This document shows, in pieces, positions 25,406 to 35,691 of a DNA stretch of 42,636 nucleotides (position 1 is its first letter; each line of letters opens with the position of its first letter). Made by a program: the position numbers and the translations under genes. The notes below the pieces were generated by a model, which worked only from the letters and a program-made list of their open reading frames with translations, made no database searches and was not told where the DNA came from. The DNA lies in NCBI GenBank assembly GCA_020355185.1, contig CP070662.1:756791-799426 (forward strand). Direction: 5' to 3'. The DNA is from an archaeon. Its GTDB lineage: Archaea > Aenigmatarchaeota > Aenigmatarchaeia > PWEA01 > JAGHBM01.

Positions 25406-25468
25406 GCATCCTTATCTAACTTTCGTTCTTAAACCAATTTCATTGAACGAAAGGAAGAATATGGATGC
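25406..25468 (-). repeat. HEG-leader hairpin module, copy 1
   Basis: ORF-sense GCAUCC-AUAUUCUUC-CUUUCG-loop-CGAAAG-UUAGAUAA-GGAUGC, 26 nt before the AUG at 25379. Confidence 0.7.
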
Positions 25469-25808
25469 TGAAAAAGATATGCGGGAAGAGCGACTCACAC
25501 CGATAACAACACGCGGCGTCAATAGGGGCTTTCGGCCGCTACGATCCGGTTATCCCTGAGGTAGCTTTTCTGACATCCCTGAGCCCTTAATCGACCGGCG
25601 CTTTAGTGCGCCAAGTTATCAATGAGCTTCAGGATTTCGTTAGGCCCGGCTTTCGCCTCTGAATCCCTCGATGTTCAGGATTCAGTCAAACCAGCTTTTG
25701 CCCTTACACTCTAAGGAGGATTTCTGACCCTCCGGAGCTGATCTTTGGGCACCGTTGATACCATTTCAACGGCGTACCTTTGGGTGCACGGAAGCCTTCG
25801 GTGCATCA

Positions 25809-25859
25809 GCGGACATATTCTCCCTTTCGCCTTGCGGGACGAAAGTTAGATAAGTCCGC
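25809..25859 (+). repeat. HEG-leader hairpin module, copy 2 (left arm of the 55-nt inverted repeat 25808-25862)
   Basis: GCGGAC-AUAUUCUCC-CUUUCG-CCUUGCGGGA-CGAAAG-UUAGAUAA-GUCCGC, 17 nt before the ATG at 25877. Confidence 0.75.
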
Positions 25860-25876
25860 TTCGCAAAAAAGTAAAC

Positions 25877-26530
25877 ATGAAAAACAAAAGTTTTTCAATG
25901 AACAAAAAACTTAGTTCATTCATTGGTTTACTTTTGTCTGATGGTTCTGTTTACTACGACAAGAGTAAGCAGACTTTTTGTGTCCAGTTTACAAACAAAA
26001 TCCCTTCAATGAGAGATTATTTCAAATCGCTTTCCACTGATTTATTTGGAATTGAGAATTTTCATGAAAATCGCTGCAAAAATGCCATTTCCATAAGATT
26101 CTTTTCCAAGAGAATTGCTGAATTTCTTTTCACTTTCTCTCCAACTTACAGAACTTTAAGGTATGAAAATGGAAATTATCCTACTTGCAAAGTTCCAGAT
26201 GAAATAAAAAACTCTAAAATATTTTCTGCAGAGTTCCTACGTTCTTATGTATCCTGTGACGGTTCATTTTACTCGAATCCGAAATATTCGATAAACCGTC
26301 TTGAGGTTCGGTGTTATCACCCAAAACTCATTTCAGATTTAGTGAAATGTTTAGATGTCTTGGGGATAAAATGCAGGACTTCTGGTAACAAACTGCTTAT
26401 TACTGACAGAGAAAATCTAAAGAGATTTCTTCACTTGGTTGGATTTCTTGAAGAGAGTCTTGTTTCTGAGACGACATCTCCCTCTTTTGGATTTTCCAAA
26501 AATCAGAAGATGAAAGATGCACTTCATTAA
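25877..26530 (+). CDS. double-motif LAGLIDADG homing endonuclease, encoded antisense to the 23S rRNA
   Basis: FIGLLLSDGSV and FLRSYVSCDGSF motifs ~100 aa apart; intact 217-codon frame in A/T-rich DNA; stop 14 nt from the intron edge. Confidence 0.8.
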   Translation: MKNKSFSMNKKLSSFIGLLLSDGSVYYDKSKQTFCVQFTNKIPSMRDYFKSLSTDLFGIENFHENRCKNAISIRFFSKRIAEFLFTFSPTYRTLRYENGNYPTCKVPDEIKNSKIFSAEFLRSYVSCDGSFYSNPKYSINRLEVRCYHPKLISDLVKCLDVLGIKCRTSGNKLLITDRENLKRFLHLVGFLEESLVSETTSPSFGFSKNQKMKDALH

Positions 26531-26753
26531 CGCCTCTCGCACATGCCCCAGTCAAACTGTCCACCTGATGTTGTCCAGGTCTCCCTGTAAGCAATAGGTT
26601 TTCGAAAGAGTAGTGTTACATTCAACGACCGACGCGCATTGAAGATGCACGTCAAATCTTTGTTGACTACACCTGGACTGGCGTCCAGGCTTTAGCGTCT
26701 CCTACTTACGCTATACAACCGAAACCCTATCACAGCATCAAGCTACAGTAAAG

Positions 26754-27476
26754 CTAACCGTTGGAAGAAAGAGCAAGCCTCATTCTTTCGTTTGTACTGA
26801 GATGAGGTGGACAATTGCCATGATTTTTAAAAAGTATGATTTTAGGCAAATGCTTTTCGTTTAAAAAACCAATTTCATCTATCCATTTATTTAACATCTC
26901 CTTACCGTAAATTCTTATCCTGTAGTCTCTAAAAACTCTCTGATATGTTTCCTCGCTTGAAACTTTGAAACCAAGTTGAATTAACTTTTGCAAAGCGAAT
27001 TTATGGATTACCTTGTTATTGGTAAAGAACTCAATTCTCGGCTCGTTGTGAATTCCTTTTCTGTTTTTCTTGAAGGTGACTGTGAAGTCTGCATCTGCAA
27101 GACCTCTCAAGAAATGATTTACCAAGTCACCTTTTATCCAGCTTGGAATTTCCTTTAGCTTTAACTTATTTCCAACAGGCAAACCTATTTTTATTTTCTT
27201 TTCTACAGCACTTTTGGAATTCAAATGAACTACTATGGTGTTTTCATTTCTTCTAAAGTAAACACATGGTTCTTTTTTGTATATTTTCCTTAGTATTCCA
27301 GGGACCAAAAATTCGTAGAAATTTCTGTCGTCAATTGAATGGCCGGAATATATTGTTCTATATACCTTGTTTTTTCTGTCTAATTGTAAGGATCCGTCTC
27401 CTAAATGGAGTCCCGTCTCGTATGCCAAAAGTTCTTTCTCTTTCAAATTTTTAATTTGAAAATTTTTAATTTTCAT
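26754..27476 (-). CDS. double-motif LAGLIDADG homing endonuclease
   Basis: LAYETGLHLGDGSL and FLRGLADADFTV motifs; the last ~5 codons and the stop run into the downstream rRNA exon (..GGUUAGCUUUACUG). Confidence 0.8.
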   Translation of the reverse strand: MKIKNFQIKNLKEKELLAYETGLHLGDGSLQLDRKNKVYRTIYSGHSIDDRNFYEFLVPGILRKIYKKEPCVYFRRNENTIVVHLNSKSAVEKKIKIGLPVGNKLKLKEIPSWIKGDLVNHFLRGLADADFTVTFKKNRKGIHNEPRIEFFTNNKVIHKFALQKLIQLGFKVSSEETYQRVFRDYRIRIYGKEMLNKWIDEIGFLNEKHLPKIILFKNHGNCPPHLSTNERMRLALSSNG

Positions 27477-33875: not shown

Positions 33876-33876
33876 G

Positions 33877-34863
33877 TTAACCCCTCATAATTATGAATAT
33901 TATGTAGGCCAAATAAAGGGCTATGAAAATAGCTCCCTCCCATTTGCCCAGTTCATGTTTTTTTCCTATGAACATGAAAAGGAAGAGGGCAAAGGTGGCA
34001 AAAGCCAGGAAAAATATGTCAAAGTTCACAAAACCCGGCAGGACTATGGGAGTTATGGTGGAGGTTATTCCGAGTACCCAGAATATGTTAAATATGTTTG
34101 ATCCCACTACACCGCCTACTGCGAGATCCACGTCCTCCTTTATTGCAGCTATGACCGAAGTGGTAAGTTCCGGGAGAGAGGTCCCCAATGCTATTATAGT
34201 GGCTGATACAAGAAACTCGCTGACTCCTATAAAGCGGGCAATGGATATTGCACCCTCTACCACCCACTTGCCTCCAAGACAGAGTCCTGTTATCCCGAAA
34301 ACTATCATGGAAAATATTACATAGTAGTTATATTCTTTTATCTCCAGTTTCCTGTCCTGTAATCCCCTTCTTTTTTCCCTAGCCACGTCGAACACATAGT
34401 AAAGGAAAATCGCGAAGAAACAGACCATAACTATACCGTCAATTCTGGTTAGAAGGGAAAAACTTAACTGGTCTATTAAAAGATCATTGGCTGCCACGAA
34501 GAGTATGAAAACAGCGAAAATGCTGAAGGGTATCTCTTTCCATACGGTGGAGTGCTGTACTTTCAGGGGACAAATTGCAGCCGTTAGGCCGAGAACTAGA
34601 AGTATGTTTGCGATGTTAGAACCCATGACATTCCCTATGGCAACCTCCGTGGCATTCTCCAGGGCAGAGAAAATATTAACCATTAGCTCGGGCATAGAGG
34701 TTCCGAAGGCAACAATAGTGAGACCTATGAAAAGGGATGGTATGCCCCACTTCTTGGCAAGAGAAGAGGAGCCTTCCACAAGGAAATCCGCCCCCTTCAC
34801 CAGAAGGAAAATACCTATGATGAAAAGAAAATATTCAAGCATAAGAAAGATTACTTTTCGCAA
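33877..34863 (-). CDS. CaCA-family Na+/Ca2+ exchanger (YrbG type)
   Basis: Two alpha repeats GTSMPEL and GTSLPEL, ~10 TM segments. Confidence 0.85.
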   Translation of the reverse strand: MRKVIFLMLEYFLFIIGIFLLVKGADFLVEGSSSLAKKWGIPSLFIGLTIVAFGTSMPELMVNIFSALENATEVAIGNVMGSNIANILLVLGLTAAICPLKVQHSTVWKEIPFSIFAVFILFVAANDLLIDQLSFSLLTRIDGIVMVCFFAIFLYYVFDVAREKRRGLQDRKLEIKEYNYYVIFSMIVFGITGLCLGGKWVVEGAISIARFIGVSEFLVSATIIALGTSLPELTTSVIAAIKEDVDLAVGGVVGSNIFNIFWVLGITSTITPIVLPGFVNFDIFFLAFATFALFLFMFIGKKHELGKWEGAIFIALYLAYIIFIIMRG

Positions 34864-35001
34864 TTAATAAAATTATACTTTTAACTGTAAAATTGATTCA
34901 AAAATATCTGATTAGAGTATTGGCGTCCTGATGATAATTTTTAGGAGGTGATCCAGCCGCACTTAGGCCAAGGTATCGAACACGATAGCCCCGTGTTCCC
35001 G

Positions 35002-35622
35002 TTACCGAGACGAGAGAAGATTTCTCATAATCGTTAATCTTCGTTTCTTTTCAGGATGTAATGACCCTATCAAATCACAAAAGTTAATTATGCCTTCTTT
35101 GTTTGTTATAGAAAATCTCCATATTTCACCACAATCATTATGCTCTGAGATTCTTACTTTTCCACATTTAATTCCAAAGTTTTCTATCATTTGTTTCAGT
35201 TCTTCTAGAGATTTCTTTTCTTTTTGTGTAAATTTTATGTACATTTTCTTTTCCGGTGTTGGGTTCTTTGGGCATCCACCATCTGTATCCCAAAAACCCA
35301 TTATATAGAATTTCTGTTCGTTAATTGTCTTTGGTTGTCGATTCTGAAACTCGTTTAGTTTTTGCCATATTAGTTTATCTTTAAATGCCAGATACCATAC
35401 TGGTTTGTATTCTTTCTGCAAGTAAATGTTGTTTTTGATTTCTTTATCAAACACTTGTTTAAATGTTGGTACAATAACATCACTTAGCCATTCTTTATTT
35501 TTCTGTTTTATCTTAATTGTCCATTGGGTTGTCAAACATCCGTCTTTGAGAACACCAATCAAGTAATATATTTTTGAATTAATTAAATCCCTTGGATTTA
35601 ATTTAAAATTTTTGATTTTCAT
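35002..35622 (-). CDS. double-motif LAGLIDADG homing endonuclease
   Basis: YYLIGVLKDGCL and YIMGFWDTDGGC motifs. Start set at the ATG at 35622 (MKIKNF, the same first six residues as the 27476 ORF) rather than the TTG at 35643. Confidence 0.8.
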   Translation of the reverse strand: MKIKNFKLNPRDLINSKIYYLIGVLKDGCLTTQWTIKIKQKNKEWLSDVIVPTFKQVFDKEIKNNIYLQKEYKPVWYLAFKDKLIWQKLNEFQNRQPKTINEQKFYIMGFWDTDGGCPKNPTPEKKMYIKFTQKEKKSLEELKQMIENFGIKCGKVRISEHNDCGEIWRFSITNKEGIINFCDLIGSLHPEKKRRLTIMRNLLSSR

Positions 35623-35638
35623 ACTTGAATTTAGGCGA

Positions 35639-35691
35639 GGCAAACTTATCTAATTTTCGTGTTAAAAACCGAAAAGAAGAATATGTTTGCC
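35639..35691 (-). repeat. HEG-leader hairpin module, copy 4
   Basis: GGCAAAC-AUAUUCUUC-UUUUCG-GUUUUUAACA-CGAAAA-UUAGAUAA-GUUUGCC, 16 nt before the AUG at 35622. Confidence 0.7.

Follow-up and report, generated by a model that had tools for sequence, protein, structure and literature searches.

To our knowledge, how the endonuclease genes that lie inside archaeal ribosomal RNA (rRNA) introns are expressed has never been settled; their open reading frames (ORFs) sit in the most heavily transcribed RNA of the cell, one that is not itself translated. The promoters of archaeal leaderless genes consist of a purine-rich TFB-recognition element (BRE) directly upstream of an 8-bp A/T-rich box; the box ends some 20-24 bp ahead of the start codon, and a Shine-Dalgarno sequence is missing. 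The closest system worked out so far is that of the phage T4 intron endonucleases, in which internal promoters are combined with a hairpin that keeps read-through transcripts from being translated (PMC2988022). The literature that could be searched, with older primary papers on archaeal rRNA introns outside our reach, gave no account of a conserved leader module, an internal promoter or antisense endonuclease genes in bulge-helix-bulge (BHB) introns. Here we describe a hairpin module that stands before each of four LAGLIDADG homing-endonuclease genes in the rRNA operon of an archaeon of the Aenigmatarchaeota. The window, by which we mean the whole stretch of DNA analysed, comprises 42,636 nucleotides (assembly GCA_020355185.1, contig CP070662.1, positions 756,791 to 799,426 of the forward strand). 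As judged from sequence comparison, the conserved hairpin is most likely the carrier of the endonuclease gene's own promoter.

The original prediction, made from the window alone, had described this hairpin and offered three candidate roles for it: a translation or stability element of the excised intron RNA, an internal promoter, or the end of a mobile cassette. When the window was searched with the pattern ATATTCTYCYTTTCG-N(4-34)-CGAAARTTAGATAA, exactly four matches were obtained (25412-25462(-), 25815-25853(+), 27500-27538(-) and 35646-35684(-)), against none in 100 shuffles, and either half-motif, with up to two mismatches allowed, led to the same four sites only. All four modules lie within rRNA introns, as had been supposed, three in the large-subunit (LSU) gene and one in the small-subunit (SSU) gene. 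With their 7-bp outer stems included, the hairpins are as follows.

25405-25469, minus strand: hairpin c1, in LSU intron 3; BRE/TATA-like CGAAAGTTAGATAA at 25412-25425; TATA-to-ATG distance 32 nt; GUGAU 3 nt before the ATG.
25808-25860, plus strand: hairpin c2, in LSU intron 2, on the opposite strand to the rRNA; CGAAAGTTAGATAA at 25840-25853, 23 nt before the ATG.
27493-27545, minus strand: hairpin c3, in LSU intron 1; CGAAAGTTAGATAA at 27500-27513, 23 nt before the ATG.
35639-35691, minus strand: hairpin c4, in the SSU intron; CGAAAATTAGATAA at 35646-35659, 23 nt before the ATG.

Each of the four folds into the same imperfect hairpin (z-scores of -4.4 to -6.0; none of 200 shuffles was equally stable), which reads, from its base inwards, 7-bp outer stem, A·A mismatch, 5 bp with a bulged U, 2x2 pyrimidine loop, 6-bp inner stem and variable apical extension. 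The outer stems covary as claimed. Across c1-c4, 29 core positions are identical, against a pairwise identity of 17-22% (BLASTP E > 0.03) between the proteins encoded downstream, whose bodies are indeed dissimilar. Hairpins c2 and c3, which lie in neighbouring introns and in opposite orientation, differ by a single base. Measured again from the 7-bp stem, the spacing to the AUG is 16 nt in three copies and 25 nt in the fourth. The reported lack of GGAGG holds for every copy, but the long-spacer copy c1 carries GUGAU, a complement of GGAUCACCUCCU at the 16S 3' end. The shared start AUGAAAA.YAAAA.UUUU was found again in three of the ORFs.

The module extends beyond this genome and is linked to homing-endonuclease genes elsewhere. 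Scans with the exact pattern returned three loci in GTDB genomes and eight in metagenomes, a scan of viral contigs for the module gave no match, and some 15 further distinct copies are now known from other uncultured archaea, each directly before a LAGLIDADG ORF. For a search of wider reach a covariance model was built on 12 copies, and all 19 of its matches on the ORF strand (E <= 1e-5) lie directly upstream of a LAGLIDADG ORF; among them are copies too divergent for the pattern scan (several of L012a/b, L014, L019, L024 and L026, L numbers being our labels for the loci compared). The extra loci were fetched only via protein homologues of three of the ORFs, so that they are unbiased with respect to the module, and 6 of the 11 homologue loci obtained in this way carry a model match directly upstream of the gene.

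With more sequences the predicted covariation persists. In 17 aligned copies 99% of the cells are paired, and none of 500 shuffles reached the covariation observed; pairing falls to 41-52% when the partner is shifted by one column; and two-sided, doubly compensatory changes occur in 9 of the 18 pairs (39 cells), with no one-sided change in any pair, although these cell counts overstate independence, the copies being related by descent and by homogenisation within genomes, and the covariance-model alignment is itself fitted to the structure. Compensation also occurs within the strands that pass for conserved: TTAGATAA and ATATTCT have become TTAAATAA and ATATTTT in L019, with a like change in L007r, while L012 has two G-C pairs in place of the 2x2 loop and L024 has the loop swapped (UU/CC). 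Covariation thus shows that the pairing of the putative promoter with its upstream arm is selected.

The 3' arm of the hairpin, CGAAAG-TTAGATAA, is probably an archaeal BRE/TATA promoter from which a leaderless endonuclease mRNA would be made. Such an internal promoter, the second option of the original prediction, is supported by the distance from TATA to ATG, by a split between leaderless and Shine-Dalgarno-bearing copies, by the TATA boxes of relatives that lack the hairpin and by a lineage of antisense genes. In 16 copies 23-24 nt lie between the end of the TATA-like octamer and the ATG, and all 16 of these short-spacer copies have C or T at -1, the ATG at +1, an AT-rich stretch at -12..-2 and no Shine-Dalgarno sequence. 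In the two long-spacer copies, at 32 and 34 nt, the ATG is preceded at 3-4 nt by GTGAT or GGTGA, both complementary to the 16S 3' end, and position -1 is an A. A start fixed about 23 bp past the TATA box predicts exactly this division into leaderless and short-leader genes. The conserved ATGAAAATTAAAAATTTTC start is limited to the short-spacer copies, as might be expected if the 5' end of a leaderless mRNA were under constraint.

The bases themselves would also suit a promoter of this kind. At the BRE position the core copies have CGAAAG or CGAAAA, and the divergent copies have AAAAAG or AAAAC. Among ordinary leaderless genes of the window, TTTAAAT or TTTATAT is found at a distance of about 19-24 nt (27 at most) from the ATG, and a comparator with the same layout of BRE and TATA as the 3' arm of the module is found in front of the rRNA operon.

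37827-37842, minus strand: putative rRNA operon promoter, GCGAAAAG-TATTTAAA.

About 257 nt separate this putative promoter from the mature SSU 5' end downstream of it, and the position is conserved in L004 as well. A nearby sequence upstream of SSU, ATATTCTC/TTATCT at about 37697, was considered as a further module copy and rejected, as the partly conserved stretch of L004 (GGATAT…GATATCTGATTA) has neither element. Related intron endonuclease genes without the hairpin have canonical TATA boxes, among them CTTTAAAT, CTTAAATA, CATTTATAAG, CTTTAAGT and ATTAAATA, mostly 20-23 nt before the ATG and 30 nt before it in L016a. In L019, TTAAATAA stands in the place of TTAGATAA, and in L021(-) TTAGATAAG is kept at 23 nt, with no 5' arm.

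The antisense genes provide the fourth line of support. Homologues of ORF 2, the plus-strand gene behind c2, lie antisense to the LSU rRNA at identities from 80% down to 41% in L019, L021, L022 and L023, the loci whose orientation was read from an Rfam rRNA scan; with the window this makes five genomes. The module of L019 is complete and in the orientation of the ORF, and upstream of the hairpins in this lineage there is only GC-rich exon and junction-helix sequence. Since antisense genes cannot be read from the rRNA transcript, an internal promoter within the module is required for that lineage. The same module also serves sense-oriented genes, and its orientation follows the ORF and not the rRNA.

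What the pairing does is a separate matter. Not one G·U pair occurs among 302 cells of the module stems, against 11 in 111 in the predicted junction helices of the same four introns (Fisher p = 4e-7), a p-value that is overstated because the cells are related, although even about 80 effective pairs would make a zero unlikely. As RNA and as DNA alike, the fold of the reverse strand is at least as good as that of the forward strand, and tetraloop-type apical loops are seen in both orientations; both DNA strands fold, at -12.7 to -15.7 kcal/mol (z = -4 to -5.8), and nothing of the sort was seen at ten ordinary promoters of the window (z from -2.0 to +1.2). The hairpin ends at about -17 and would therefore lie outside the inferred mRNA.

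These properties bear on the view that the hairpin acts in RNA. Carried in an excised linear or circular intron serving as mRNA, it could place the ribosome at the AUG 16 nt downstream, which has no Shine-Dalgarno sequence, or it could block 5'-to-3' decay. The clear selection on pairing, the constant distance between hairpin and AUG and the stability of the hairpin as RNA would all suit this role, as would a cUUCGg apical loop in one lineage (L002) and a single G·U pair in the analogous hairpin L023b. However, the antisense lineage, with its five genomes, cannot obtain the hairpin from the rRNA transcript and has no TATA-like sequence upstream of it; relatives without the hairpin retain a TATA box at the same distance, and the substitution of a canonical TATA at that very position would go unexplained; the neighbouring helices, which are true RNA helices, have 10% of G·U where the module has none; and the reverse strand folds just as well. 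Given the antisense ORFs, the lack of G·U and the equal folding of the reverse strand, we disfavour the translation or stability element of the excised intron RNA that was the first option of the original prediction, and regard an RNA leader of either kind as rather improbable. Indeed, the hairpin does not look like an mRNA leader. A sense-specific RNA signal was likewise rejected, as the reverse strand folds as well or better and tetraloop-type loops occur both ways. A role in protecting the folding of the BHB junctions was also considered and set aside: partition-function folds of the introns with their exon flanks, in which one arm was shuffled, gave no systematic loss of junction pairing, though this is a weak test.

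Alternatively, the hairpin could be a device of the DNA, through whose intrastrand pairing the promoter works or is switched. In one form of this idea, supercoiling from rRNA transcription would extrude a cruciform that hides the TBP/TFB site, whereby the selfish promoter would spare rRNA synthesis; in the other, a hairpin in single-stranded DNA (ssDNA) would rebuild a double-stranded BRE/TATA before a pre-melted template, much like the Frpo promoter of the F plasmid or the promoters of phage N4, and allow expression from incoming single-stranded intron DNA. Pairs that are Watson-Crick only, without wobble, and the folding of both DNA strands are what such a device would lead one to expect. 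The stem, moreover, covers exactly the BRE and the TATA box and ends at about -17, just upstream of the expected archaeal open complex; a divergent copy serves a free-standing gene whose AT-rich intergenic surroundings receive no read-through from rRNA; and in an unrelated module of L023 the TATA box is again the 3' arm of a 12-bp stem. Against it, three stem defects and apical loops of up to 22 nt would make the extrusion of a cruciform costly, half of the related endonuclease genes have no hairpin, and an extruded or single-stranded state of the DNA is purely hypothetical here. We also know of no archaeal precedent for a structural promoter at the level of DNA, and count this against the idea. 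Overall we consider it unlikely, and any specific role for the hairpin, on DNA or on RNA, is at best a tentative proposal and more doubtful than the promoter itself.

The L023 module just mentioned is a leader of its own. In L023 (500-5450), four of the five LAGLIDADG genes in or around the LSU rRNA gene, one of them antisense, share the leader …CGGAATAGCGGAAC…CTATCCATA…, i.e. CTAGCGGAATA(C/G)CGGAAC...CTATCCATA, with a TATA-like box 20-22 nt before the ATG. In two of these four leaders the TATA-like box is the 3' arm of a 12-bp stem (z -3.3 and -4.3). That the leaders are genome-specific suggests homogenisation or adaptation to the host.

Two further loci show the module in other settings. The minus strand of L007 (1-436) has a divergent module (39 bits, at 367-436) with a LAGLIDADG gene behind it; the DNA around them is AT-rich and intergenic, and the rRNA operon is 5 kb away. 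The gene adjoins an aminoacyl-tRNA-synthetase-like gene, and its ORF extends past the locus that was fetched. It appears to be a free-standing endonuclease gene on the same cassette, and since this copy lies outside an rRNA gene, read-through from rRNA is not essential. In the closest relative, L001 (3660-3692(-)), the homologue of ORF 3 has a 28-nt deletion right after ATGAAAATTAAAAA, resulting in an early stop, and the module upstream is intact. Taking the explanation as a whole, we lean towards a portable expression cassette for LAGLIDADG endonuclease genes, borne by introns and at least once free-standing, as the comparison of these sequences indicates.

A cassette may also be portable in another sense, in which the palindrome is the 5' boundary of a mobile unit and the complementarity of its arms arises from templated (quasi-palindrome) mutation or gene conversion and not from a selected function. 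The same core does stand before ORFs of 17-22% identity, the stretch that runs from the hairpin into the first codons is almost the same in different introns of one genome (c2 and c3, L012a and L012b), and the changes in the stems are all two-sided, with no intermediates. Yet templated correction should have removed the mismatches and the bulge, which are kept in 14 copies, and a mobile end explains neither the fixed distance to the ATG nor the split into leaderless and Shine-Dalgarno genes nor the TATA substitutions. At the 3' ends of the ORFs, where no systematic search was made, no counterpart of the hairpin came to notice, and the ORFs run into the junction helix. We therefore think a recombination or mobility end very unlikely as the function of the hairpin. 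The third option of the original prediction, the end of a mobile cassette, stands only in the limited sense that the module and the first few codons are shared between unrelated ORFs and homogenised within a genome.

Symmetry of this kind might also be that of a protein-binding site, with the endonuclease repressing itself from a pseudo-palindromic operator over its own promoter, as does I-TevI of phage T4. LAGLIDADG enzymes bind pseudo-palindromic DNA, and ORF 1 encodes an extra winged helix-turn-helix (HTH) domain. For the T4 intron endonucleases, operators overlap the promoters and resemble the homing sites (PMC2988022). Here, however, four unrelated enzymes with four different targets would have to share one core, and the best match of a module to its own reconstructed homing site is 11-12/20 in the four introns, equal to that of shuffled controls. 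Furthermore, the distance from arm to arm varies by 16 nt, and outer stems that covary without being conserved are unlike a protein operator. An operator of this type is extremely unlikely.

Based on these observations, we propose the following model for the expression of the endonuclease genes from their own promoter. CGAAAR would be the BRE, and the adjacent (T/G/C)(T/A/C)AGATAA or TTAAATAA the TATA box. Transcription would start about 23-24 bp downstream, at the ATG or 1-2 nt before it, to form an mRNA without a leader; for the two long-spacer copies the expected transcript has a leader of about 10 nt bearing a G(G)UGAU Shine-Dalgarno sequence. Expression of the endonuclease would thereby be uncoupled from the rRNA transcript, and for antisense-oriented genes this would be the sole route. 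On the pre-rRNA or the excised intron, an internal AUG without a Shine-Dalgarno sequence should stay untranslated, and such a silent AUG would keep ribosomes off the junction helix, which is encoded by the 3' end of the ORF, before splicing. The 5' arm would be the selected complement of the promoter, and with it BRE, TATA and 7 more bp would become an imperfect hairpin, about 25 bp long and reaching to about -17. As the pairing is Watson-Crick only, strand-symmetric and outside the inferred mRNA, its role would lie on DNA or in read-through transcripts of either orientation; on DNA, a cruciform or hairpin might hide or present the TBP/TFB site. This last step is the least certain.

Several points weigh against this model. 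The TATA box is non-canonical in most copies and weak in some: TTAGATAA has a G at position 4, several divergent copies (GCAGATAA, CCAGATAA) are poor, and only AGATAA is constant. The start site is deduced from spacing and resemblance of motifs alone, and the very heavy transcription of the surrounding gene may occlude such a promoter to a large extent. Nor does the promoter model by itself predict a hairpin. In 14 copies the 5' arm keeps its unpaired residues, namely those of the A·A mismatch, the bulged U and the YC/UU loop, which hints at a ligand specific for sequence or shape. Finally, the G·U comparison counts alignment cells that are not independent, and one G·U pair does occur in the analogous hairpin of the unrelated L023 module.

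A number of known structures were compared with the hairpin. It is not a BHB splice motif, its defects being an A·A mismatch, a 1-nt bulge and a 2x2 loop and not two 3-nt bulges around a 4-bp helix; nor is it a K-turn, which needs tandem G·A pairs and a 3-nt bulge, since the 5' strand has no G; nor a group I core, for which there was no Rfam match. All three exclusions had been part of the original prediction. As the ORFs take up almost the whole of each intron, there is no space for a ribozyme core. At the gathering score, an Rfam scan of the window found rRNA and tRNA only, and at permissive E-values there were only chance-level matches over the module. An H/ACA guide was rejected, as no conserved ACA follows the stem and the strands of the would-be pocket pair together and covary (C-G to U-A in L019 and L007r); a search for an rRNA match to either strand of the module found none. 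An intrinsic terminator was rejected because the stem is followed by TC(A/G)C... and a T run is absent on either strand. Sequestration of the AUG in the manner of T4 was rejected as well: the AUG lies 16 (or 25) nt 3' of the stem, and flank pairing towards it, present in c3 and weak in c4, is not conserved elsewhere.

The setting of the four modules is given by the following features, for which the LSU introns were defined by alignment to L001, whose LSU gene lacks two of them, and by co-folding of the junctions; intron ends are accurate to 1-2 nt only.

LSU 24017-29906 and SSU 35708-37570, minus strand: rRNA operon of the window, by Rfam.
26756-27577, minus strand: LSU intron 1, BHB type, central helix CCGU:ACGG, bulges AGA and UUA.
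25779-26544, minus strand: LSU intron 2, BHB type, central helix UGGG:CCCA, bulges GCA and AAG; absent from the relative L001.
24545-25504, minus strand: LSU intron 3, BHB type, central helix GUUG:CAAU, bulges UUA and AUA, ends +/-1-2 nt; absent from L001.
35002-35727, minus strand: SSU intron, inserted after ...GUAGCCGUA; both boundaries from alignment to the intron-less L004.
24561-25379, minus strand: ORF 1, LAGLIDADG, 272 aa, with a C-terminal winged HTH; downstream of c1.
25877-26530, plus strand: ORF 2, LAGLIDADG, 217 aa, antisense to the LSU rRNA; downstream of c2.
26754-27476, minus strand: ORF 3, LAGLIDADG, 240 aa; downstream of c3; its stop codon spans the 3' splice site.
35002-35622, minus strand: ORF 4, LAGLIDADG, 206 aa from the ATG; downstream of c4.

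One LAGLIDADG ORF nearly fills each of the four introns. The identity of all four as LAGLIDADG genes is borne out by Pfam LAGLIDADG_3 matches, two above the cutoff and two just below it, and homologues of the latter two carry PF14528. Junction co-folding placed BHB motifs, some of them relaxed, at the ends of all three LSU introns, and identified none for the SSU intron. The mature SSU 3' end lies near 34943 and the Rfam match to SSU ends early, at 35708; the intron-less L004 reads GTAGCCGTACGGGAACGTGCGGCTGG, and therefore the fourth ORF is intronic too. ORF 1 combines a single LAGLIDADG_3 domain with a C-terminal HTH_24 winged HTH (just under the Pfam cutoff), and is also the gene of the long-leader copy with a Shine-Dalgarno sequence. 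The stop codon of ORF 3, at 26754-26756(-), is split by the 3' splice site (U|AG). Its last 25 nt or so are the 3' strand of the helix adjoining the BHB motif, which means that translation of the unspliced RNA would unwind the splice signal.

Other insertions were seen in the same operon. At the SSU 3' end there is a twin insertion, 34943-35727(-), in which the intron is followed by a 7-nt micro-exon, CGGGAAC (34995-35001), then by an ORF-less 32-nt insert (34963-34994) and then by GUGCGGCUGGAUCACCUCCU, outside the Rfam SSU match; a similar pair of an endonuclease intron and a hairpin mini-intron is described for Pyrobaculum (PMC4496867). A 60-nt SSU insert at about 36431-36490(-) retains CTTAAGGGAAAGAAGAGA, the 5' end of the endonuclease intron (module and ORF) that L004 has at the same site, and looks like the ORF-less remnant of an endonuclease intron. 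Small hairpins of the type GCG-CAAAA-CGC occur in the ORF-less inserts 35870-35928(-) (SSU) and about 24430-24505(-) (LSU), and again in the intron of the window's only tRNA, 41911-42036(-), which was found by Rfam and missed by ARAGORN. They may be a family of mini-intron elements.

If the model holds, it provides a comparative answer, for a group of uncultured archaea with small genomes, to how genes in rRNA introns are expressed: each endonuclease would have its own BRE/TATA promoter and a leaderless mRNA, and would be silent on the pre-rRNA, even where the gene is antisense. A promoter of their own would explain the conserved lineage of antisense endonuclease genes in BHB introns, and the module is a sequence signature by which such genes can be found. 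The Watson-Crick-only hairpin, which recurs in an unrelated module, offers a handle that can be mutated to ask how a selfish promoter and an essential host gene coexist. If either form of the DNA-level device were true, it would be the first structure-dependent promoter described in Archaea; the ssDNA form would let the endonuclease be made from incoming intron DNA in a naive cell, at the time when homing needs it.

How, then, does the module compare with known systems? It resembles the promoters of archaeal leaderless genes in its layout, in the pyrimidine at -1 and purine at +1 and in its AT-rich proximal region, and differs from them in a non-canonical TATA (TTAGATAA, of which only AGATAA is invariant) and in that the entire BRE/TATA is one arm of a covarying hairpin. 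Single-stranded-DNA hairpin promoters are known from the F plasmid (Frpo) and from the early genes of phage N4, where they serve bacterial sigma-70 and phage polymerase. With these the module shares promoter elements in the stem of an imperfect hairpin, conserved mismatches and pairs that are Watson-Crick only, a likeness of architecture alone; the transcription machinery is different, and the single-stranded state is hypothetical here. With the I-DmoI type and the 16S introns of the Thermoproteales (PMC4496867) it has in common the BHB type of intron, the rRNA host gene and the LAGLIDADG ORF, and with the latter also a hairpin mini-intron beside an ORF-bearing intron.

The T4 arrangement is the nearest to compare. 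As in T4, an intron endonuclease gene with a promoter of its own, here an inferred one, is nested in a host gene; a stable hairpin stands at the promoter and 5' region; transcripts from the internal promoter would lack the hairpin and read-through transcripts would have it, provided that the start predicted from spacing is right; and expression of the endonuclease would be decoupled from expression and splicing of the host gene. In contrast to T4, where the hairpin sequesters the Shine-Dalgarno sequence and the start codon, the AUG here lies 16 nt outside the hairpin, there is no Shine-Dalgarno sequence, and the paired element is the BRE/TATA itself. The T4 genes lie in group I introns of protein genes; those described here lie in protein-spliced BHB introns of rRNA, with stems that avoid G·U and what would be an archaeal TBP/TFB promoter and a leaderless mRNA. 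Since the hairpin would hold the promoter and not the ribosome-binding site, the module is better seen as an analogue of the T4 system than as a member of its family.

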